A stretch of DNA of 63,156 bases from a virus (IMGVR_UViG_3300032236_000575:1-63156); one strand, 5' to 3'. Positions 5,076 to 52,748 are shown, numbered from the stretch's first letter. The notes: a model not told the origin generated them from the sequence alone. Numbers and translations: made by a program.

Positions 5076-8000
5076 TTATCGTTTGATCTCAACCGAAACC
5101 GCGCCGGGATACCCGTTCGACGCGGTGAGCGTGTTTGCCACTGCACCGTCCGATGTTGTCAGGTCTTTTGTGAGAAGCCGGTATCCCCAGTTTGCAACGC
5201 TGATGGCAGATACCCTTGCCGTGTAACCGGCAGGTGCTGCGTTGAAAGATGGTGCCGCGCCTGCCACTACATAGATGTCCATGAAGTGGAGAACCTGCGA
5301 AGCTCCCGATGTGTCAGACATGGTGATCGCTGGTGCCGTGCATGACGCAGCCTGTGCAGTCGGCTGTGTCGCTGCGCTTCCGCCAATCGGTGATGCGCCC
5401 TGACCCGAGAGCACGGCAACGATCATCTCGCCAGCATTCGTCCATGTCCCGCTGGTGTGGTTCGTCGCCGTCGCCACTGCGTAATACAGCTTCTGATAGC
5501 TGTTCGATTGAATTACTGACCATGTCGGCACTGTCCCTGCAGCGGATGGAACTGTCGGTGTGCTCACGCCAACCGCAAAGATGACGATGATGTCACCGAC
5601 ATTGTGCGAGGGGATGGTGACTGACGTTCCGAACGCACCGTTCGAACCCTTGTACTGCACTGCTTGTTTCGCCGTTGCCGACAGAGCACCAGAGCCAGAT
5701 ACTGCCCCGGCCACAGCCATGCTGGGAACAGTAGAAACCGAAAGCAAGCCGGAACCAGCGAAAGCAACTGCACTGCTGTAGATCTGAGACAGCGATGCTG
5801 TCAGTGCGCCAACACCAGTTTGGATGCCCTGCAGCAGAGGCACATTGATCGAACTCAAGGATCCCGAGCCGGAGAGTGACATTGCATTGCTGTAGATCTG
5901 AGACAGGGCAATCGAGATCGTTCCGATGCCGGACTGGGCATCATTCACGATTGGTGTGACCAAAGCCGACAGGGAACCAGAACCGGATGCCGCCCCTGCC
6001 ACAGCAGCACTAGGAACAGCGAAGGCCGAAAGCAGGCCAGAGCCGGACAGAGAAGAGTACGAAGATATTCCAGAACCCAACATAAGCGGCAAGACATAGG
6101 GGAACTGCGCCGCACTTGCAAATGCCGACAGAGCACCAGAGCCGGATGCTGAACCGGCCACCGCGACGATGGGTGAAGTGGAAGCCGAGAACAAACCAGA
6201 TCCGGCGAAACTGGTTGCCCTGCTGAAAAGCTGTGAAACAACGAAAGCCACTGTGCCAGTGCTTGATTGAGAGTCTTGCAGCAGCGGTGCGCCGGTTGCC
6301 CCGAGAACACCCAAGCCAGAAAGCGACACCACACTGTTGTAGATCTGAGACAGCACAGCAGCGAGAGCACCAACGCCGGACTGAACTTCGTTGATCAGAG
6401 GTGAACTAGTGGCCGACAGAACTCCAGATCCGCTGAGCGAAACGGTTTTCTGATAGATCTGCAGGAGAAGGAACGCGAGTGTGCCAACGCTTGTTTGTGC
6501 ATCGCCAAGTAAGGGCGAGTCGATCGCGTGCAGGCCGTCGAGAGAACTGTCCCAATCAGATGCGTCTAGCTCTCCAGAAGATGTGAGTCTTGCAGCGACA
6601 GAATAAAGTTGGTAGGCCAGGGACGCGAAGGTTCCCTCTCCAGCTTCTGTCGCTTGATTGGCGGAGAACTGGTAGTCGATGGCCTGCAGGCCGTCATTGA
6701 TCGCGGCATCGTAAGTTCCCTCGCCGCTGTAGAAAACGAAGTAGGGGTTTGTCGAGTAAGTCCACGCCGACAAGCCGCTGTAAAGATAACCGAATTGGCT
6801 TGTGTCCTGATTACTGAACGCACCGTTGTTGATGTACGCGACGATGTTGCGAGCTTTGTCATCGCTAGTAATCAGTCCTTGGCCCGACAGCGACACCGAG
6901 GTGCGAGCGATCTGCTTGATCGATCCACTGAAGTTGCCCTGGCATGTGAACTGCGGTGCGCGAGCAACTTCTAACGAATACCAACCATCAGCGAGTGGAA
7001 CAGGTCGCGGAGGTGGATCAACAGACCACTGCCCCGTCTTCGGTTGCTTAACGGGAAAAGGGGCGGCATCCCACGATCCTCCGCTCTGGCAGCTTTCTCC
7101 AACCTGCTGAAGATGTTGCAGCGCAATCTGATACGAGGTCAAACCGTGCATCGGGTCGCCCGGTGGCGGCTGCGTCGGATAGAGAACGTGACCTCCGCCG
7201 CCGTTGCTCAACACATGGCTCGAAATGTAGTTCAGCGTGTCGATGAAGCTCTTCACCGAACCGATGTTTGGTGTCAGCAGAGTAGTGGCAAGCCACTGAA
7301 GCACGTCGGTGCTCGTCGCATACTGAGTGATGAACGCAGCCGCGTTGACAATGTCTTGCCCACCGAGGCTGTCACCAACCCCGGCGATGATCTCGTCCTG
7401 GTTGACGAAGTCCCACATAATGTTTGGTGTGTTTTTCAGTCTGAGCGATTCGGGAAAGCAGCCGTGACCGCCGGTTGTCGATCCCGGTATGTCGATGCAG
7501 CCGGACCACAGAGAACCCGGCCATGTGTGATTCGTTTCCCTGCACGGGTTACCAAAGGTCACACATGTAAGCAGGTCCGCTTGCCTGGATTGCAATGAGC
7601 CATAACGGATCTCATCGATGATCGAAGACATCAAAGCAGCACCCTGCGAGTAGCCGCCCACAGCGAAGGGGCCAGGCTTGGAATTGATCAAATCAATAAC
7701 CACTTGCTTGCCTTGAGCGAGCGACGTGATCATCGGCAGTGCCGCTGCCGGGTAATCGACCTTGATTGCATCCCACAGTTTTGCGTCGAGCATGAAGGGG
7801 AATGGATCGTTTACTGGTGCGCCGTCGAAGGTGAATGTTCTGCCGTCGATGCCAGGGACGAGGATTGTTTGTCCACCTCCGATCTGGCCGTAGCCGGAAC
7901 CGAAGATGTCAAACAAGAACGCCGTTCCCGTCGCATAGTAGAAACGCGGCCTCGACTGTCCGCCATCGCGATTGGGGATGTCGCGAGTCGGAATGTCAGC

Positions 8001-8093
8001 GCGAGTCGAATACCGCGCAGGCTTGATCTGAGGAAGAGGCTCCGCACCGAAGACACCAGGGAAACGAAACGGAAGCAGTAGCTTGTCAAACAT
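5076..8093 (-). CDS. Minor tail protein with N-terminal LysB/cutinase-like serine esterase domain and Ser/Gly repeat stalk
   Basis: DYPAAALPM...GGYSQGA...VTFGNPCRE motifs; repeated SGSGxLSA units; within the tail module. Confidence 0.8.
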   Translation of the reverse strand: MFDKLLLPFRFPGVFGAEPLPQIKPARYSTRADIPTRDIPNRDGGQSRPRFYYATGTAFLFDIFGSGYGQIGGGQTILVPGIDGRTFTFDGAPVNDPFPFMLDAKLWDAIKVDYPAAALPMITSLAQGKQVVIDLINSKPGPFAVGGYSQGAALMSSIIDEIRYGSLQSRQADLLTCVTFGNPCRETNHTWPGSLWSGCIDIPGSTTGGHGCFPESLRLKNTPNIMWDFVNQDEIIAGVGDSLGGQDIVNAAAFITQYATSTDVLQWLATTLLTPNIGSVKSFIDTLNYISSHVLSNGGGGHVLYPTQPPPGDPMHGLTSYQIALQHLQQVGESCQSGGSWDAAPFPVKQPKTGQWSVDPPPRPVPLADGWYSLEVARAPQFTCQGNFSGSIKQIARTSVSLSGQGLITSDDKARNIVAYINNGAFSNQDTSQFGYLYSGLSAWTYSTNPYFVFYSGEGTYDAAINDGLQAIDYQFSANQATEAGEGTFASLAYQLYSVAARLTSSGELDASDWDSSLDGLHAIDSPLLGDAQTSVGTLAFLLLQIYQKTVSLSGSGVLSATSSPLINEVQSGVGALAAVLSQIYNSVVSLSGLGVLGATGAPLLQDSQSSTGTVAFVVSQLFSRATSFAGSGLFSASTSPIVAVAGSASGSGALSAFASAAQFPYVLPLMLGSGISSYSSLSGSGLLSAFAVPSAAVAGAASGSGSLSALVTPIVNDAQSGIGTISIALSQIYSNAMSLSGSGSLSSINVPLLQGIQTGVGALTASLSQIYSSAVAFAGSGLLSVSTVPSMAVAGAVSGSGALSATAKQAVQYKGSNGAFGTSVTIPSHNVGDIIVIFAVGVSTPTVPSAAGTVPTWSVIQSNSYQKLYYAVATATNHTSGTWTNAGEMIVAVLSGQGASPIGGSAATQPTAQAASCTAPAITMSDTSGASQVLHFMDIYVVAGAAPSFNAAPAGYTARVSAISVANWGYRLLTKDLTTSDGAVANTLTASNGYPGAVSVEIKR

Positions 8094-24654: not shown

Positions 24655-24852
24655 TTACGGTTGCGCGTCCTCGATGTCGCCCTCGGTGTACTTCACGATG
24701 ATGTAGCCGTCGCCACCGGCCTGCGGAACATAAACGATGAATCCTGTTGGCGCGTCGAGCGTTTCGGCGTATGCCATTGCGCCCTGGAGTGAGTCGAAGC
24801 GGCTGTCTTTGATGCCTTCGAAGTGTGTTTGAAAGTAGTGGATTGTGTTCAC
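24655..24852 (-). CDS. Hypothetical protein
   Basis: GTGA overlap with the upstream gene. Confidence 0.55.
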   Translation of the reverse strand: MNTIHYFQTHFEGIKDSRFDSLQGAMAYAETLDAPTGFIVYVPQAGGDGYIIVKYTEGDIEDAQP

Positions 24853-27800
24853 TTCTCACCCGGCACAAGCTGGAAAGTTCCCCGACGCAAAGCGCGAGAC
24901 TTCTGCGGTATGTAGAACTCGGGATTACCAGCAGGTTCTGCTTTGATCTGGCTACGCGGAACATCAAGTGAGACAACAGAACCCGAATCACCGGCATATG
25001 CCCTGGCGCGGTTCAGGTCCGTAGTAAACCATCCTCCATTTCCGGGAAGCCAGCTCTGATCGGTGACGATCTTGTTGGCATTCTCGGCATTGGTGCCGTG
25101 GTAAACGGTCACAAGATTGCCTTTATCTGGAGCTTCCGCAGTGCCGACAGCAGTAGGCGCGAACTTCGCCTCAATCTTCGAAACCTCTGCAAGAGTCTCA
25201 GCCTTGATCGCGTCATAGCTCGAAAGATCGTTGATGTATGCGACAGAACCCAACGGGCCGACAACATGAACCCACGGGATCGCCTGAACTGAAGACGTAT
25301 CCATGCCCCGCTCTTTTGCAACTCGCTCAAGAACTTCCGCCATGCGCTTGTAGCCGACAGGATCGTTCACCTTGTTTACGGTACGCGCATAGGTACGCAT
25401 CTGCTCCGCAAAACCTTTGTCATCGGTGTGCAACATGATGCGAGCAACCCAACGATCCGTTGTGCCCCTCATGTAGTCACCGGCAGCGTTCGCGGCGAAG
25501 TCAGCAGGCTTCGGAGCGGTAGTCGCATTGGAACGAAGATCAGCCACGCCACCGAGAGGATTCTTCATCGCCCTCATGGCCTTATCGACGTGGAAGTCAT
25601 ACCCCGTGTCGCTGCCGGTCAACTCTTTGTACTTCTTCGCGTACTCCTTGCGAAGTGAGTAATCATACGAATTGAGAGGAACAAAGTAGGGCCGAGAGCC
25701 ACTGCCGTCCAACCACTTTCGAACACCGATGAGGTTACCGGCCCACTTGTTGTTCTCAGACCAGGCGGCAATAAACGATGCAGCGAGATCCCTCGTCAAA
25801 GGGATACCCCACTCCTTCTGAAACTGTTCGCCGTACTTCTCGACAAACGTGTCACACATCTTCGTTAAGTCGGGATACCACTTCGCGCCAAGCTCTTTTG
25901 CCCAAGGCTCAGAAGCGTCGAGAGCGGCTTTCCAGTTGTCCTCAAGAACCTTGTAGCCGTCTTTCTCAAGCTGCGCCCATGTCGCAGCGACATCGACTTT
26001 CTTGACGAGACTCTTCTCGCCAGTGTCCTCGTCCTTGATCTCCATCATCTGGAACGTGCCGTCAGCGTTCATCTGATAGATCGGTTTGACCTCAGTGCCC
26101 TCTTTGATGCGAGCCTCAACAGATCCGAAACCGCGAGCCTTCTCGCGAGCCTTGATCTCTTCTTCTTTTTCTTTGGCGATTCTCTTTTGTTCTTTTTCGG
26201 CAGCCCTAGCCTCGCGAGCGGCAGCCTTTGCCTGCTTCGCGGCCTCTTTGTCATCCGCTGCTTTCTGCTTCGCCTTAGCGGCATCGAGGCGCGACTGTTC
26301 CTGAGCGTCAACGGTTTTCGATGGCTGCACACCAGCGGACATCACCCAACCGGGCTTAGTCACCTTCGATGCGGCAGCTTTATCTTTTGAGGCATTGACC
26401 ACAAGCTCGTACAATGCCTTCTCTGCAGAGTTGGCGGTGGCCGGATCAGTCTCGACGTGAGCGAACGCTTCTGCGACGGCTTCTGTCGGGTTAAGGGCAC
26501 CGAAGTCATCGAAGCTGTATGCCGACAGCTTTGACTTCATCCAATCTTTGAAGCCGTCCGCTGTTGCGCTTCCTTCGGCTTCTTTCTCGTAAACAGTCTT
26601 CAGTGTGTCGAGGCACTTCTGGCTTGCTTGGTATCCGCCAGTTGCGTCCATGCCGTGCCCGAACTCGTGCGTGACAATCGTTGTCGCAGCATCACTTCCA
26701 TCTTTGGGAGGGTGATAGCCAACATCGATCGCGTGCTGATAGCTCTTCTCTAGTGTCTTGCCGTCCGCGAAACGATCTTTATCCAAACGGATCTCGGTTG
26801 CAGTCATGTCGCGATCCATCGCAAGACCCGCTTGCCACACATCGGTTTCCGCATAGCGGTTCGACGTGCTCAATCTCTTGGTTCCCGATACTTCTCTGAT
26901 GTTGGCTTGCGGATACTTGTCGAGAAGGTCATCGACTGCTCTTGCCGCCGACGTTGCCGGTCCAGTGTCAGCAATCCAATACGTTGGGAACTCGACATCA
27001 AGTTTCGGGTGCCGCGCCTCTAACTGCTTCGCAGTGCGGATGGGGTTGTCATAGTTCTGTATGTCGCCGGGTTGGGGCTTGAGCCACGAATCGTCAGGCG
27101 GCACATAGTTTTTCGGGTCGAACCCGACTCGCATCTCAACACCGGGAACGATCGTGTATTCGGGGATCTTCCGGTCTGCGCCGGACGCAGCGGCAGGCGG
27201 AACGTACTCTTGCAGTGATTCCTGACGAACAGTAAGAAGGGTGACGCTTCTGTCGTTTGGGCCGGGAGGACCGGCGACAAAATCTCCATTTACATCTATG
27301 CGTGCAAGCGGATCGATGTTAACGATCTTGAATGTGCCGAATCCGACACGCTCGTAATCACCGCCCTCAATCGAGGTGACCTTTGCGCCGGACTCAAGTT
27401 TTAAGACAACGGGCTTGCCGCCGCTTGGGTAGTCCTTCGAAACCCAACCGAAACTGCTTTGACCGATCGCATAGGACTTGGCATCTTCGGGAACAACGGC
27501 GAAAGATGAAGCAGGAATGGATAACTTGCCGCCAACCTTTAGCTCATCAATATCGGACTGAGTCATTCCGATTCCGCGATACAACTCCTGCTCAGTCGGC
27601 TTTGCATAGATTGCACGAGCAGCGATCTCTTTGCCGACAAGATGGAGTTCTTCGGGAAACGTAGAAGTATGAAGATCGGAAAGGCTTACAAACGCGGCTT
27701 TTTCTTTATCGGTTAAACCCGAATATCCATGAAGCTGAACATCTCTGACACCTTCGCGCATTGCTTGCTTGGTTTCATCGAAGTCGCCCGATGTCCATCG

Positions 27801-29315
27801 ATAGTTGATGTCTTGTCCAACTTCAACGAACTTCGATGGCTCTGCGACTTTTGGTCCGGTCCACTCAAGCGGCTCATCTACGGCTTTTGATGCGACTGAA
27901 CGTATTTCAGATACGCCGCCCTGGCTTCCGCCTTGATCTGTTCCTTCGATTTTCCTGCGGTACTGATCATTAAGATCGGACGCTTTGCCGAGCTTCGTGT
28001 ACTTGCCTTCTTCATCTATCGTCCCAACGTCGATCGTGTTGAAGTTGCTCAGATCGAAGACCGCAAGCTGCTTCGCTTTCTGCGCCTGCGCGATGGTCTT
28101 CTCGTCCGGCGTGCCAACCTTCGACACATCCATGTACATGTTGCCGTCTTCACTACTCAACCAGAGGCCCAGGTGATTACCCGGTTGTGAAAGCAACTCG
28201 TAGTGATCATCGATGTACTTGTCGATGTCTTCCGGCTTGAAGTCCTTCATCGGGATCGGGAACTCAGTGTCCTTACGCGGAGCAAAAGCAAAGCCCTCGT
28301 TAGGCTGCTCACCGGCAAGGTTGATCGTGATGCCTTCGTTCCTGACAGCGGTGTCGTACACGTTCTTGACGTAGGCCGAATTAACCTGCTGTGCAATCTC
28401 ATTCGGCCCAGTGAAGTCCTGGCTTCGCCATGTAAGCATCGGCCCGATCTCGCCGTGCTCGCGAACCTGAATCAGATCCCGATAATCCTGCGGAGAAGCA
28501 TCGTCCTCGTTGAGCTTGGCGATGTCTTCCTTCTGCAAGCCGTCCGGCGCAGGAGGATCAAACCCTTCATCGGCCTGAGCCTGCAACTCGTGCTGCTCAA
28601 GATCCTCGGGGTTATCAATGATCTCGATGTCGCACGAACAGTTGTCATGTATCGGCATCAGTTCGTTCGTCGCGTAGATATCCGACGAAGCGATCTCACA
28701 AAGCTCGCAAGGATTTGAGCTTGTCGGCACGCGCCGGTAAAACTGAACCTTGCTCTTCCGCATCGACGCTTGCGCTTGGCGGACCTTCGCCATTTGAATG
28801 TCAACGCCGACAAGCGAATTGAGCCGCCGTAAACCCTTCTGCACTGCCCTGGCCCTGGTGTCGCCATCAGCAACGGCCTTGGCAGCTACGCGATAAGGTC
28901 TGGCGTACTCTTCGGCCTTTGAGACACCGTCACGATCAAAGATTGAAGGGTCAAGCTTTACCGGCCTCTCGCCGGTCTGCTTTGCAACCTGACCCGAAAT
29001 GTAGTTCGCCACAACAGTTTGAGAAGCCTCAACAATGTTGCTCAGAACCTCGGTGGAACCGCTCTCGACAGCAGAGGCAATCGCCTCGTCCACACCGTCG
29101 TCAGCGTTTACTGTTGCGAGGTACACCGCTGCTGCGCGTGCGCGAGCCTGCCGGATCAGTTCGCGAGAGAACTGCAAAAGGTCAACGCGGTCGCGAACCT
29201 CGCTGCGCTTTTCAAAGAAGCCTTTTTCCTCGATGTCCTCAAGTACGCCGCGCTTTTTGAATGACAGATCGATAGCAGGTGGATCGAAACCTTCAGAGTC
29301 GAAGGGTGATGTCAC
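24849..29315 (-). CDS. Capsid maturation/MuF-like head protein fused to several effector domains (ART-like, zincin metallopeptidase, glycosylase-like, ART-like)
   Basis: Position portal+1; CELC...IHDNCSC; LYRG...SSF...YE; HEFGH...EAVAEAF; WYP...DRWVAR...VQAIPW; VYHGT...FTTD...AYA...EF. Confidence 0.75.
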   Translation of the reverse strand: MTSPFDSEGFDPPAIDLSFKKRGVLEDIEEKGFFEKRSEVRDRVDLLQFSRELIRQARARAAAVYLATVNADDGVDEAIASAVESGSTEVLSNIVEASQTVVANYISGQVAKQTGERPVKLDPSIFDRDGVSKAEEYARPYRVAAKAVADGDTRARAVQKGLRRLNSLVGVDIQMAKVRQAQASMRKSKVQFYRRVPTSSNPCELCEIASSDIYATNELMPIHDNCSCDIEIIDNPEDLEQHELQAQADEGFDPPAPDGLQKEDIAKLNEDDASPQDYRDLIQVREHGEIGPMLTWRSQDFTGPNEIAQQVNSAYVKNVYDTAVRNEGITINLAGEQPNEGFAFAPRKDTEFPIPMKDFKPEDIDKYIDDHYELLSQPGNHLGLWLSSEDGNMYMDVSKVGTPDEKTIAQAQKAKQLAVFDLSNFNTIDVGTIDEEGKYTKLGKASDLNDQYRRKIEGTDQGGSQGGVSEIRSVASKAVDEPLEWTGPKVAEPSKFVEVGQDINYRWTSGDFDETKQAMREGVRDVQLHGYSGLTDKEKAAFVSLSDLHTSTFPEELHLVGKEIAARAIYAKPTEQELYRGIGMTQSDIDELKVGGKLSIPASSFAVVPEDAKSYAIGQSSFGWVSKDYPSGGKPVVLKLESGAKVTSIEGGDYERVGFGTFKIVNIDPLARIDVNGDFVAGPPGPNDRSVTLLTVRQESLQEYVPPAAASGADRKIPEYTIVPGVEMRVGFDPKNYVPPDDSWLKPQPGDIQNYDNPIRTAKQLEARHPKLDVEFPTYWIADTGPATSAARAVDDLLDKYPQANIREVSGTKRLSTSNRYAETDVWQAGLAMDRDMTATEIRLDKDRFADGKTLEKSYQHAIDVGYHPPKDGSDAATTIVTHEFGHGMDATGGYQASQKCLDTLKTVYEKEAEGSATADGFKDWMKSKLSAYSFDDFGALNPTEAVAEAFAHVETDPATANSAEKALYELVVNASKDKAAASKVTKPGWVMSAGVQPSKTVDAQEQSRLDAAKAKQKAADDKEAAKQAKAAAREARAAEKEQKRIAKEKEEEIKAREKARGFGSVEARIKEGTEVKPIYQMNADGTFQMMEIKDEDTGEKSLVKKVDVAATWAQLEKDGYKVLEDNWKAALDASEPWAKELGAKWYPDLTKMCDTFVEKYGEQFQKEWGIPLTRDLAASFIAAWSENNKWAGNLIGVRKWLDGSGSRPYFVPLNSYDYSLRKEYAKKYKELTGSDTGYDFHVDKAMRAMKNPLGGVADLRSNATTAPKPADFAANAAGDYMRGTTDRWVARIMLHTDDKGFAEQMRTYARTVNKVNDPVGYKRMAEVLERVAKERGMDTSSVQAIPWVHVVGPLGSVAYINDLSSYDAIKAETLAEVSKIEAKFAPTAVGTAEAPDKGNLVTVYHGTNAENANKIVTDQSWLPGNGGWFTTDLNRARAYAGDSGSVVSLDVPRSQIKAEPAGNPEFYIPQKSRALRRGTFQLVPGEK

Positions 29316-48616: not shown

Positions 48617-48945
48617 ACCTGCAACCCTCGCTCTGTTGCGTAGCGGTGCGCTCGCCTACACGAGTAGCACGGCTGTTTTCTCTCGCGAACGTGTCTCTGA
48701 TAGCCCACCTCTGTGCCGTGAGGAAAGACATCTTGAGGATCTACCAAGCTGTCGAGTTTGGTTCCGGCCCAAACGCCATGCGTTGCACCGACTCTCGTCG
48801 CGTACTCACCGCATTGCTGCATCACAGGGCAGCGTGAGCAGATCAGTCGCGCTTCAGCGCACTGCTCCGACTGCAACGTTTGAGGGAACCACAACTCGGG
48901 ATCCGCCTGAGCGCAGAGTGCCTCGTCCATCCATTCGTCTGCCAT
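48583..48945 (-). CDS. whiB: WhiB-family transcription factor
   Basis: WMDEALCAQADPELWFP...ICSRCPV...C...HGVWAG. Confidence 0.95.
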   Translation of the reverse strand: MADEWMDEALCAQADPELWFPQTLQSEQCAEARLICSRCPVMQQCGEYATRVGATHGVWAGTKLDSLVDPQDVFPHGTEVGYQRHVRERKQPCYSCRRAHRYATERGLQVCSTQTGTMTS

Positions 48946-49036
48946 CAGAACCACACCATCGTTGTCATCACTGCAAAGCTGATGGACAGCAGTGCGATGC
49001 GTGCGGCGATTTCTATTGCGTGCCAATCGGTTTCGT

Positions 49037-49237
49037 TCATGCTGGTGGCTGTGCGGCCTTTCTGAATTGTTTGATCGCCTGGAGCCTCGCGTGCCTGTTG
49101 GACGGCGAGTGACTGCACGTCACGGTCTTGCCGGTGAGTCTGTGCTTGAAGGCGGCGTGGCCTCGGCCATTGATGCCGACGTATTCGAATCCGAGATCTT
49201 TTGCGATGCTTGCCAGTTCGCGGACGTTGCGGTTCAT
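49037..49237 (-). CDS. HicA-like protein
   Basis: MNRNVRELASIAKDLGFEYVGINGRGHAAFKHRLTGKTVTCSHSPS; 66 aa, basic, G.GH motif. Confidence 0.65.
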   Translation of the reverse strand: MNRNVRELASIAKDLGFEYVGINGRGHAAFKHRLTGKTVTCSHSPSNRHARLQAIKQFRKAAQPPA

Positions 49238-49380
49238 CAGTGGTTGATGACCATCAGTGCGATGTTGGCGAGTGTGAATGCGGCGAAGATCGATATGACG
49301 ATCGCGCCTACATGAGAATGCAGTGCGGACATGCATGAGACACCGGCTAGTGCGCCGGTTGCGTGCGTCGATGTGGACAT
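49237..49380 (-). CDS. Small membrane protein
   Basis: GAAGGGAG SD; C-terminal hydrophobic helix. Confidence 0.5.
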   Translation of the reverse strand: MSTSTHATGALAGVSCMSALHSHVGAIVISIFAAFTLANIALMVINH

Positions 49381-49494
49381 CGACTTTCTCCCTTCTCTGG
49401 TTGGTACACCGTTCCAAATGGAACGATGCAAAAAACACGCTCTGACCTGCGTAAACGTCGCCGGCGAGAGGTGTTGTCCTACAACGAAATTGAG

Positions 49495-49574
49495 TGGAGC
49501 AGACGAGAATCGAACTCGCGTCCGGCCAGGTCCGCATGCGGATTTCATCTAGCCGTCGAAACCATCCCTGCCCC
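49495..49574 (-). ncRNA. Mini-tmRNA: tRNA-like domain only, no tag reading frame
   Basis: GGGGCAG/CTGCTCC-A acceptor stem with G3.U70; tmRNA-type GGTTTCGAC D-region; GGCTAG/CTGGCC helix; GGAC-GCGAG-TTCGATT-CTCGT T arm; 80 nt. Confidence 0.85.
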
Positions 49575-49588
49575 TTGCCAATAAGCAA

Positions 49589-49646
49589 GGCTCGCCCCGC
49601 CGCTCAACCTGCGGATTGGAGGACGCAGGGAACAGCGGGGCGAGCC
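49589..49646 (-). other. Two-stem hairpin just upstream of the mini-tmRNA; minus-strand loop UCCUCCAAUC
   Basis: GGCTCGCCCCGC/GCGGGGCGAGCC outer stem, CCTGCG/CGCAGG inner stem. Confidence 0.65.
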
Positions 49647-49738
49647 AGCTTGTCTCTATTCAGTTGTAGGCCAACGGTTTACACGTTGTGCCCCGACTCA
49701 GCAGGTGGGAGGTGGGCCTGCATGAGCCTGTCTAGCTT

Positions 49739-50404
49739 CTACTTGATTGCACCGATGACCTTGAACACCGAAAGCACGTCAGACCATGCGCTTTTGATGT
49801 CCTTGATCGACTCTTTGATGTCACCGGGGTTGATGTCGGCATCGAAGTTGTCACCATCGAATGCCTGCTCCAGAGCATCGGCTGCGGCACGAACGGACTT
49901 GTATGCCTTCTCCAGTGCCTTGCGCTGATCGTGGTACTCGGTTGCGTCTTCGGCCTCGATGTAAGGCTCTTCCTTGTCCTTCTTCTTGAACGTGCGCCCG
50001 TCAGTCGAAACGGTGTCACCCTTCTCGACATCGACAAGATCGCGGTTGACAGTGCCGACACCGACACCGAGCACTGATGCGATCGATCGTTGCGAGATCC
50101 CCTTGCCGGACATCATCGCGGCCATCAGCTTTCGCTCTGCTGTGTCTGACGGCGCGATCTGCACTGCATCGGAGAAGTAGTCGCTGATGCTGTTGTATCC
50201 GAGAGCGAGATGGATCTCGCCCTCGGCAGCTTGAGCCATCAGATCGAACAACGTTGACACACCGTTGCTGATGCTGTCGCTGGCCGATCGGATCTTCTTG
50301 TCGAGCGACTTGGCTTGCGTCTTGTTCAGTTGCGTGACGATCTCTGCTTCTACGATCGTTGTTTCCACGATCGCGATCTCGTTGCTTTCTACTGCTGCGG
50401 TCAT
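49739..50404 (-). CDS. HTH DNA-binding protein
   Basis: GISQRSIASVLGVGVGTVNRDL. Confidence 0.75.
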   Translation of the reverse strand: MTAAVESNEIAIVETTIVEAEIVTQLNKTQAKSLDKKIRSASDSISNGVSTLFDLMAQAAEGEIHLALGYNSISDYFSDAVQIAPSDTAERKLMAAMMSGKGISQRSIASVLGVGVGTVNRDLVDVEKGDTVSTDGRTFKKKDKEEPYIEAEDATEYHDQRKALEKAYKSVRAAADALEQAFDGDNFDADINPGDIKESIKDIKSAWSDVLSVFKVIGAIK

Positions 50405-50476
50405 AGGTTGCGCTTTCGGTTGATGTTGTGTGTGACCGTATTCAGTTGTTTTCCTGTCCCGATCGTATGGGCCGGG

Positions 50477-50818
50477 TTAGGTCTGTGTGTGCAGGCCGCG
50501 CATGATGTTGCGGACTGCTTGCTCCCCTGTCGGGTCTGCATAGGTGATGACTGTGTGCAGATCTCGCAGTGCCCTGGCCGCGATGGCGCGGTCTGCGCTG
50601 CTGTTGATCTCGTTGTGTAAGTGATGCCAGAACATCAGCCAGCTTCCTGCGCTGAAGTGTTGGGTGAACTTGACCACGATGCGGTTGTGCCGGTTGGCAC
50701 CCCACGGCAGTTCGTAGTGAGCGACGAACTCGCGCACGAATGCCAGTAGCTCTTTGGTCTGTGGAGGGGAAGTGGATACCCCTGCTGCTGCGGTCGCGAA
50801 GGCGGTCAGGTCGGCCAT
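50477..50818 (-). CDS. Hypothetical protein
   Basis: Start MADLTAF overlapping the xis end. Confidence 0.55.
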   Translation of the reverse strand: MADLTAFATAAAGVSTSPPQTKELLAFVREFVAHYELPWGANRHNRIVVKFTQHFSAGSWLMFWHHLHNEINSSADRAIAARALRDLHTVITYADPTGEQAVRNIMRGLHTQT

Positions 50819-52431: not shown

Positions 52432-52442
52432 GTGTACCTCTG

Positions 52443-52653
52443 TGTGGATAGCGGTGTGGAAACGATGTTTCTTGTCGCTTTTATCCCCTGCGAACTGCAG
52501 TTTTTAGTGGAGCTGCCGGGAATCGAACCTCGCACCTAACAGCGATGTTTTTGCAGGTAGAAGCCACACTACACCCCTCGCAACACCACTGCGATATCCA
52601 CATGTGTGCCGATGCGAGCAGGGACGATGCACATCGATGTGGATATATCCACA
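52443..52653. repeat. Putative integrase arm-type sites TGTGGAWA flanking the attP core
   Basis: Copies at 52443, 52455, 52595 (inverted), 52638 and 52646 (palindrome TGTGGATATATCCACA). Confidence 0.55.
52507..52529 (-). other. attP core matching the 3' end of an actinobacterial tmRNA (ssrA) gene
   Basis: Minus strand GGTTCGATTCCCGGCAGCTCCAC (T loop plus acceptor 3' strand), 75 nt upstream of int. Confidence 0.85.
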
Positions 52654-52748
52654 CGCGATCCCTGGCACCTACGAGTTTGCTTGCGCCCCTTCATCATTGG
52701 AAGTCGCAGCAATGTTCCTGGGAAAGCAAAGCAATTTGTGTTGGTGGT

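Follow-up and report, generated by a model that had tools for sequence, protein, structure and literature searches.

How a phage could make use of a transfer-messenger RNA (tmRNA) that carries no message is the question raised by a short RNA gene in the viral genome IMGVR_UViG_3300032236_000575, a DNA stretch of 63,156 nt that was analysed over its full length (the window). The element, 80 nt long and located at 49574..49495 on the minus strand, had been taken in a first reading made from the sequence alone (the sequence-only reading) for a tmRNA reduced to its tRNA-like domain (TLD) and acting as an SmpB decoy. Trans-translation is the main bacterial ribosome-rescue route. To our knowledge, hardly any work has addressed its handling by phages, apart from that on a few full-length tmRNAs of phages and on one isolated case, Mycobacterium phage DS6A. 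The present analysis confirms that the element is a real tmRNA gene cut down to its TLD, and sampling of viral contigs indicates that, as judged by sequence, this reduced form is common in uncultured phages.

A tmRNA gene cut down to its tRNA-like domain

The Rfam tmRNA model RF00023, whose use had been proposed as a check by the sequence-only reading, matches 49492-49574 on the minus strand with 59.4 bits (gathering score 47, E 1e-20), and this is the sole Rfam match above gathering score in the whole window. The alignment spans model positions 1-374, with 302 central consensus positions replaced by 11 nt, and hence the phage RNA has neither a tag frame nor a pseudoknot. A covariance model of related phage sequences (R1, described below) scores the RNA at 84.8 bits (E 2.4e-16) without a second match in the window. 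ARAGORN, run over the whole window, called no tRNA, tmRNA or tag peptide, and a permuted-tmRNA model found no match in it. The gene and its parts, in 5' to 3' order of the RNA, are the following.

49492..49574, minus strand: TLD-only (tag-less) tmRNA gene, recognised by RF00023, the family model R1 and homology to DS6A
49568..49574, minus strand: 5' strand of the acceptor stem, GGGGCAG, pairing with 49496-49502, with G3 paired to U70
49556..49567, minus strand: stemless D region, GGAUGGUUUCGA, aligned to the tmRNA consensus GGaUUCGAC
49523..49555, minus strand: helix 2a of 7 bp (49555-49549 with 49529-49523), enclosing an A-rich bulge and the cap hairpin, from the minimum-free-energy fold
49531..49542, minus strand: cap hairpin U-CCG-CAUG-CGG-A, of 3-4 bp with a CAUG loop, in the place of helices 2b-d, four pseudoknots and the tag frame
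49503..49519, minus strand: intact T arm with a 5-bp stem and the loop UUCGAUU
49495..49502, minus strand: 3' strand of the acceptor stem, CUGCUCC, with the discriminator A at 49495

The D region, which in the phage RNA reads GGAUGGUUUCGAC, includes the G-A from the tandem G.A/A.G step with which helix 2a begins, GGAC sits between helix 2a and the T arm, and the bases 49494-49492 following the discriminator are CUC. The sequence-only reading had described an Ala-type acceptor (G3.U70, A73), the D region, a capped helix 2 and a T arm, all of which are present on the minus strand, and the limits that it had given, 49495 and 49574, are exactly the discriminator and the first base. Its further statement that pseudoknots, a tag open reading frame (ORF) and an encoded CCA are absent is borne out by the RF00023 alignment, the fold and the CUC after the discriminator. 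The mature RNA probably comprises 49574..49495 with a CCA added after transcription.

With the canonical one-piece tmRNA (RF00023), the phage RNA shares most of the highly conserved nucleotides of the tRNA-like domain, with the GGGG start, G3.U70, the GG..UUCGAC and GGAC motifs, the T loop GUUCGAuUC and the CUCCA end. However, it is devoid of the resume codon, tag frame, stop codon, helix 5 and the pseudoknots PK1-PK4, and without a messenger domain it cannot do the messenger half of trans-translation. Its characters are accordingly divided, since the tRNA-like domain and stemless D region of tmRNA are present while the messenger domain and the pseudoknots are absent, and they agree with the TLD-only type in the length of about 80 nt, the helix 2a with a short hairpin, the homology to DS6A and the location in a phage genome. 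Full-length and two-piece tmRNAs of phages (Bxz1-like phages, PegLeg and Kumao; Pseudomonas phage SM1 and Xanthomonas phage Rb1) are likewise phage-borne and of ssrA type, often beside tRNAs, but are 403-407 nt long or permuted, keep the messenger part and score only 25-34 bits with R1. tRNA-Ala, which is charged by alanyl-tRNA synthetase (AlaRS), has G3.U70, A73 and the T arm in common with the phage RNA, whereas the latter has no anticodon arm and no D stem. Its assignment as a tRNA-Ala was rejected, as ARAGORN called no gene, the best-scoring member of the Rfam tRNA clan is tmRNA, and real tRNA-Ala genes reach 35-41 bits with R1 as compared to 84.8 bits.

When the 501 nt around the RNA were compared by blastn with 50,697 phage records (2.3 billion bases), DS6A was the only phage found (E 4e-8), in three records that represent two genome copies and one old fragment. 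The two RNAs are 78.6% identical over 83 nt. A reduced RNA in DS6A had been mentioned by the sequence-only reading, and correctly so, since a table of PMC4131195 (Hudson, Lau and Williams 2014), a source used in part, has the entry 'Mycobacterium phage DS6A (TLD only)', and the same RNA is listed in the tmRNA Website as tmID 11587, 'Phage__Mycobacterium.9'. In those passages of the 2025 tmRNA database paper (PMC11915505) that are drawn on here, DS6A is the sole phage example of the TLD-only form that is named, RefSeq viruses having been processed. The RNA of the window is a second, independent actinophage example of this kind already in print.

The DS6A RNA, 83 nt as matched, has the same order of parts, with an acceptor containing G3.U70, the stemless D region, helix 2a, the CCGCAYGCGG cap, the T arm, a discriminator A and no encoded CCA. 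It differs at 21% of positions, mostly by compensated pairs, such as an acceptor pair that is A6-U in the phage RNA and C-G in DS6A, several helix 2a pairs changed on both sides and a cap-flanking pair that is U-A in the phage RNA and A-U in DS6A, while the D region reads UGGUGGUCGAC in DS6A as compared to UGGUUUCGAC. RF00023 scores the DS6A RNA at 43.2 bits, which is below gathering, against 59.4 bits for the phage RNA, whereas R1 gives 81.0 and 84.8 bits, respectively. Both phages are temperate and have mycolic-acid bacterial hosts. However, in the searches made, no nucleotide similarity was found between the remaining parts of the two genomes, and the genes are differently placed. The DS6A copy (NC_023744 28478-28560), which carries no feature in the RefSeq/GenBank record, begins 10 nt past the gp33 stop, after the lysis genes, and is followed by gp34, which encodes DNA polymerase III beta, unlike the gene in the window, which lies 1.8 kb downstream of the integrase and behind a large hairpin.

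The ssrA attachment site and the origin of the RNA

A weak Rfam tmRNA match of 12.8 bits at 52505-52577 covers the phage attachment site (attP), for which two features are relevant.

52507..52529, minus strand: attP common core of 23 nt, the ssrA 3' end from the T loop to the discriminator, recognised by Rfam and by identity with phage Marshawn
51349..52431, minus strand: tyrosine integrase of 360 aa (PHROG 1 integrase, E 1e-78)

The core precedes the integrase start by 75 nt and is identical at 23/23 positions to a sequence that in phage Marshawn precedes the integrase by 88 nt. At 360 aa each, the two integrases have the same length and share 44% identity (151/346), and the regions upstream of them are unrelated outside the 23-mer. 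According to the part of PMC10865867 used here, Marshawn employs the tmRNA-overlapping attB-9 of M. smegmatis. A 71-nt attP query matches 237 phage records, 195 of them from Mycobacterium phages. Given the identity of the core and these matches to Mycobacterium phages, the integration target of the phage is almost certainly an ssrA of Mycobacterium type, at its 3' end. The motifs TCCACA and TGGATAT are repeated on both sides of the core (52432-52700, minus strand) and may represent arm-type integrase sites; ATCCAC repeats of a similar kind are present upstream of the Marshawn integrase.

Integration into ssrA gives some ground for regarding the RNA as a non-functional remnant, that is, as host ssrA sequence that was acquired when an ssrA-integrating prophage was wrongly excised and that was afterwards shortened by deletion, or as a decayed second attachment site, and ssrA fragments are indeed described in prophages, probably owing to imprecise excision (PMC9004378, in part). 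However, an att core needs the 3' end alone, whereas the RNA has the 5' acceptor strand and the D region joined to it in register. Its 3' part is identical to the attP core at 19/23 positions. Of the four differences, two together make up a single T-stem pair, G-C in the core and A-U in the RNA, and each of the others is a stem position whose partner is in the 5' half of the RNA itself. All four are hence located in stems and still paired, as the sequence-only reading had maintained when it set the RNA apart from an att remnant. The same architecture and length are moreover found in DS6A, a phage with a tRNA-Lys gene as its integration site (PMC10865867, in part), and in the covarying family of at least 153 viral sequences with compensatory changes described below. 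Derivation from an attP or ssrA 3' fragment was rejected on account of the 5' half, the distances of 1.8 kb from the integrase gene and 2.9 kb from attP, and the 19/23 identity. A remnant of any kind is in our judgement very improbable, and one left by faulty excision can practically be discarded. As the attP core and the RNA 3' part form direct repeats 2.9 kb apart that flank the integrase gene, their divergence would also protect against deletion by recombination.

No RNA of this family was found in the four other phages with the attP core that were searched (Marshawn, LilSpotty, Wee and Niklas), with DS6A as a control scoring 81 bits, and this likewise speaks against a remnant. DS6A itself integrates at tRNA-Lys-CTT (PMC10865867, in part) and not at ssrA, and on both counts the link between the reduced RNA and ssrA integration is not general. 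Hence, from the emphasis that the sequence-only reading had placed on a phage integrating into ssrA, the ssrA-type attP is retained, while a general tie to the RNA is not.

A family of short forms in uncultured phages

Relatives were sought by three pattern scans of IMG/VR viral contigs, with about 120 matching stretches taken from each, and all counts are therefore lower bounds. Scans 1 and 2 were anchored on the D-loop and T-loop motifs, and scan 3 on the cap hairpin and the T loop. In scans 1 and 2 only candidates with at least 6/7 acceptor pairs were kept, which gave at least 122 candidates with at least 92 unique sequences; 82 of these start with GGG and resemble the phage RNA, and the remaining 10, taken for chance matches in coding DNA, were set aside. 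The model R1 was built from 30 of the 82 GGG-starting sequences. On the 82 source loci it yields 83 matches at 50-92 bits, five further matches at 26-28 bits being tRNAs according to ARAGORN, and on 96 new loci from scan 3 it yields 82 matches at 58-92 bits. The family of these short forms (mini-tmRNAs) numbers at least 165 copies in at least 164 loci, with at least 153 distinct sequences. Among the matches listed, the first 82 are all 78-85 nt long with the exception of one of 69 nt, 84/90 of the cap-anchored ones have 79-84 nt, G+C contents range from 44% to 77%, the CCGCAYGCGG cap recurs in many members, and identity to the phage RNA is 75% for the nearest relative with a median of 63.5%. 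One viral contig (L150) contains two copies, at 5-84 and 1317-1395 on the plus strand, 1.2 kb apart and scoring 50.5 and 61.2 bits.

The predicted structure, comprising 21 pairs in four helices, was tested on three alignments, the results being given as the share of alignment cells with standard pairs and as covariation, each against shuffled controls.

A4, the 30-sequence seed: 96.8% against 68.8% of cells; covariation 0.736 against 0.153
A5, the first model-aligned set: 96.5% against 67.3% of cells; covariation 0.714 against 0.150
A6, the second model-aligned set: 98.7% against 72.5% of cells; covariation 0.662 against 0.138

When pair partners were slid by 1-3 columns, only 38-54% of cells could pair and covariation was at most 0.146. 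Changes on both sides occur in 15, 17 and 14 of the 21 pairs in A4, A5 and A6, respectively, the value for A6 being not significant, with 59/500 shuffles reaching it. Several of these figures are biased toward structure by the acceptor filter, by alignments fitted to the model and by the motifs in the search patterns: conservation of the D and T loops in scans 1 and 2, and of the cap and T loop in scan 3, is partly by construction, and the cap helix in A6 is invariant by construction. Free of this bias are helix 2a and the T stem, which were never selected for and nearly all of whose pairs covary, namely all 6 modelled helix 2a pairs, which change on both sides in A5 as well as in A6, and 4/5 pairs of the T stem. 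In the cap-anchored set, whose search pattern did not include the D region, each position of GG-U-U-U-C-G-A-C is 67-99% conserved and each of GGAC 79-98%, with the exact GG..CGAC in 66/90 candidates among the matches listed. Taken together, these data indicate that the structure of the family and its alanine identity set are under selection. A minority variant of the D region, GGUUAGCC or GGUUUAGCC in place of GGUUUCGAC, is found at five loci (L298, L289, L310, L300 and L287), at four of which GUAC replaces the 3'-side GGAC, L287 being different; the G.A/A.G step may have changed here in a coordinated way.

None of 151 sampled Actinomycetota genomes, with 30 candidates scored per genome, had a family-type match, the one match of 41.5 bits being a tRNA-Ala. 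Among cultured phages, blastn with the phage RNA and two other family members, a method that is weak for such RNAs, detected DS6A as the only short form, the other matches being 3' ends of full-length or permuted tmRNAs. A literature search, with subscription papers and supplements outside its reach, found no description of a widespread TLD-only family in phages. On the family loci ARAGORN called no short form and made four long 'tmRNA' calls of 324-530 nt (L165, L223, L028 and L270), which have implausible tags and end at the 3' end of the mini-tmRNA; these were ruled out, as Rfam matches only the 80-85-nt short form there. While the RNA of the window is itself of a published kind, the analysis adds evidence that RNAs of this kind occur widely among uncultured phages and escape ARAGORN.

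Candidate functions and genomic setting

G3.U70 together with A73 constitutes the established identity set for AlaRS. In the family, G3.U70 is kept in 30/30, 86/88 and 70/71 sequences of A4, A5 and A6, respectively, and in 83/90 cap-anchored candidates among the matches listed, unlike positions 4-7 of the acceptor stem, which vary freely. The discriminator is A in 82/82 members of the first set and, among the matches listed, in 86/90 cap-anchored ones, and a CCA is encoded in 22/82 members among those listed. This near-invariance argues that the RNAs of the family are charged. A tRNA gene is present within 300 nt of 48/165 copies, several of which lie inside arrays (among the matches listed), and such placement fits processing by the tRNA machinery. 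In one instance, an array of 21 tRNA genes (L063:907-2979) has the mini-tmRNA (2458-2538) between tRNA-Arg and tRNA-Lys, and similar placements are seen in L113, L216, L227 and L004. At another locus (L165), a Pistol self-cleaving ribozyme (6093-6154, minus strand; Rfam 51.9 bits, gathering 34.5) is located about 105 nt upstream of the mini-tmRNA at 5905-5987. A gene for SmpB was found in none of six phage records searched, comprising the window and five others (three of the six complete), and the partner must therefore be the SmpB of the host.

On this basis, the element is, with moderate confidence, predicted to be a functional TLD-only tmRNA gene whose product would be chargeable with alanine, bind to the SmpB of the host and thereby block or re-route trans-translation. 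The RNA would be transcribed together with the genes next to the integrase or just after them, be trimmed like a tRNA and receive its CCA from the host enzyme, obtain alanine from host AlaRS, which would recognise G3.U70 and A73, and be bound by host SmpB through the conserved D loop and the GAC/GGAC elbow. As it cannot supply a message, it would compete with host tmRNA for SmpB and stalled ribosomes, so that proteolysis tagging and normal ribosome rescue would be blocked or short-circuited during expression of the phage gene. What the sequences show is the anatomy of the RNA, its homology, the family with its covariation and the conserved identity elements; that the RNA is processed and charged, binds SmpB and affects trans-translation is predicted. 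A related situation is provided by jakobid mitochondria and by two plastids (Mallomonadaceae), whose message-less tmRNAs, in the parts of PMC11915505 and PMC3590771 used, likewise consist of roughly the tRNA-like domain without a tag frame, a likeness taken from their description. However, those organellar RNAs replace the resident tmRNA and have a dedicated imported SmpB, whereas the phage RNA would be present in addition to a host tmRNA that is intact, and competition is therefore the expected outcome.

Published work, as far as the parts of it used here extend, points in the same direction, since a similar molecule, chargeable or not, is stated to inhibit tmRNA strongly, perhaps through SmpB titration (PMC4131195), and the DS6A form is stated to inhibit endogenous tmRNA in E. 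coli (PMC11915505). In addition to the search biases described above, several points weigh against this reading. The decoy function is derived from homology and a second-hand citation of inhibition, and the inhibition reported for the DS6A form was heterologous, in E. coli (PMC11915505, in part). A pure decoy would leave the near-invariant G3.U70 unexplained if charging is dispensable, as is stated in the part of PMC4131195 used. CCA is not encoded in the phage RNA. The Mycobacterium-like host is deduced from the attP core and the phage gene content alone. Finally, no sigma-70-like promoter was detected in 48800-50500 and the interval between the upstream hairpin (listed below) and the RNA 5' end has no space for one, so that transcription would probably come from upstream.

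The near-invariant alanine set, combined with inhibition that is stated to occur with or without charging (PMC4131195, in part), suggests that alanylation matters and that the RNA may be more than a passive sponge. It favours entry into the ribosome over mere titration. In a different scheme, alanyl-RNA and SmpB would enter the stalled ribosome and take over the nascent chain, the peptidyl-RNA would be released or hydrolysed, and the ribosome would become free with the phage protein left untagged. This tag-less rescue would be a service to the phage, as suspected by analogy for the message-less tmRNAs of jakobid mitochondria, and the mitochondrial form, which co-occurs with SmpB, is described as still helping with incomplete mRNAs (PMC11915505, in part). 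The invariance of the alanine set while the rest of the acceptor covaries is consistent with it, as titration would not require charging (PMC4131195, in part), and so is the presence of many copies within tRNA arrays, in phages that bring components of translation with them. Nevertheless, the sole experimental statement on a TLD-only form, in the parts of PMC4131195 and PMC11915505 used, is inhibition of tmRNA, a release mechanism for a peptidyl-TLD is without description in the literature surveyed, and no result obtained here tells rescue from decoy. Tag-less rescue is therefore considered unlikely, though not remotely so.

Another set of possibilities concerns immunity, and here a protein-coding neighbour of the RNA gene comes into play.

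49037..49237, minus strand: HicA-like protein of 66 aa (mRNA-interferase fold), 255 nt downstream of the RNA gene on the same strand

The ORF matches Pfam HicA_toxin at E 8e-6 with 26.3 bits, a score that narrowly misses the cut-off of 27 bits, and 13/17 of its small homologues match at E<0.01, three of them passing the cut-off. An AlphaFold2 model (pLDDT 82.5) predicts the order alpha-beta-beta-beta-alpha, and the top two Foldseek matches are HicA of a solved HicAB complex, with probability 0.99 and 0.98 and weak E values of 0.04-0.08. No HicB partner was recognised, a word-index protein search with the ORF found nothing, and matches to polyubiquitin in a sequence search of the PDB were an artefact of summed weak repeats. 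According to the part of PMC11594946 used, a review, mRNAs as well as tmRNA become cleaved through the action of E. coli HicA, and SmpB-like domains are described in predicted RNA-targeting restriction systems (PMC10542128, in part). The RNA might accordingly be a decoy for immunity proteins that read tmRNA or tRNA shapes, such as the SmpB-like domains of CoCoNuT systems or nucleases that cut tRNA and tmRNA, or else act together with the neighbouring HicA-like RNase or serve it as a decoy substrate, for which the position 255 nt away on the same strand and the lack of a recognisable HicB can be adduced. However, a HicA-like ORF is present in only 2/164 mini-tmRNA loci among the matches listed, the second being 3.2 kb off on the other strand, and there is none beside the DS6A copy. 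Furthermore, no shared protein neighbour was found among the first 111 loci beyond synteny within related phages, one group of which shares an exonuclease (YqaJ)-helix-turn-helix-WhiB neighbourhood. The two counter-defence variants, for which the case is purely circumstantial, are improbable even when taken together, and the HicA-like neighbour is suggestive as a side observation for this phage.

As for the broader meaning, it is proposed, tentatively and as something that is possible and not yet probable, that tag-less mini-tmRNAs form a widespread and old class of phage RNAs, found in temperate actinophages and in phages with tRNA arrays, that is kept alanine-chargeable and controls host ribosome rescue. 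If so, one use could be the halting of tagging and rescue when RNases of phage or host, for example the HicA-like neighbour, create message-less ribosomes, and a general device of translation-level takeover or counter-defence would have been overlooked by the standard tRNA and tmRNA finders. The many natural variants make the use of message-less tmRNA by phages testable, and the family offers natural compact candidate ligands of SmpB and AlaRS as tools.

The RNA gene is flanked by further predicted RNA structures.

49654..49675, minus strand: leader arm of an inverted repeat of 22 nt, with 82% complementarity to 49473..49494
49589..49646, minus strand: 17-bp G+C-rich hairpin directly upstream of the RNA gene, an inverted repeat (88% complementary) supported by folding
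49473..49494, minus strand: trailer arm of the 22-nt inverted repeat, immediately 3' of the RNA and the partner of 49654..49675
49430..49453, minus strand: terminator-like hairpin followed by TTTTTT, 40 nt 3' of the RNA

The 17-bp hairpin is either a terminator, devoid of a U tail, of the upstream ORF or a part of the precursor. It is enclosed, along with the RNA gene, by the arms of the 22-nt inverted repeat, which may serve as a processing stem of the precursor. The 261-nt stretch containing this repeat folds at -117.3 kcal/mol (z -5.57), with 0/200 shuffles as good, and a comparable pairing of leader and trailer was not seen around the DS6A copy. The order on the minus strand is the attP core, integrase, three small ORFs, the 17-bp hairpin, a 5-bp hairpin and the RNA gene, followed by the terminator-like hairpin, a 47-aa hydrophobic ORF, the 66-aa ORF, and WhiB and replication genes.

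The virus record is complete, with 63,156 bp, direct terminal repeats and a G+C content of about 56%, and most genes are on the minus strand. PHROG matches include terminase, portal, capsid, tape measure, a string of mycobacteriophage-type 'minor tail proteins', two proteins of cutinase/lysin-B type, WhiB, exonuclease, primase/polymerase and tyrosine integrase, from which the phage is recognised as a siphovirus of mycolic-acid actinobacteria, and the capsid gene has 78-80% nucleotide identity to a set of Mycobacterium smegmatis phages. The search for integrase relatives in cellular genome contigs gave, as a clue to the host, only four weak matches of 23-27% identity, and near relatives of the phage, sought among viral contigs through an upstream 221-aa ORF, were not found. 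Two large proteins are encoded elsewhere on the minus strand, namely one of 1488 aa (24849-29315), in which a head-maturation-protease/MuF-like region is combined with a zinc-protease-like region, and a tail protein of 1005 aa (5076-8093) with an endolysin-type domain.

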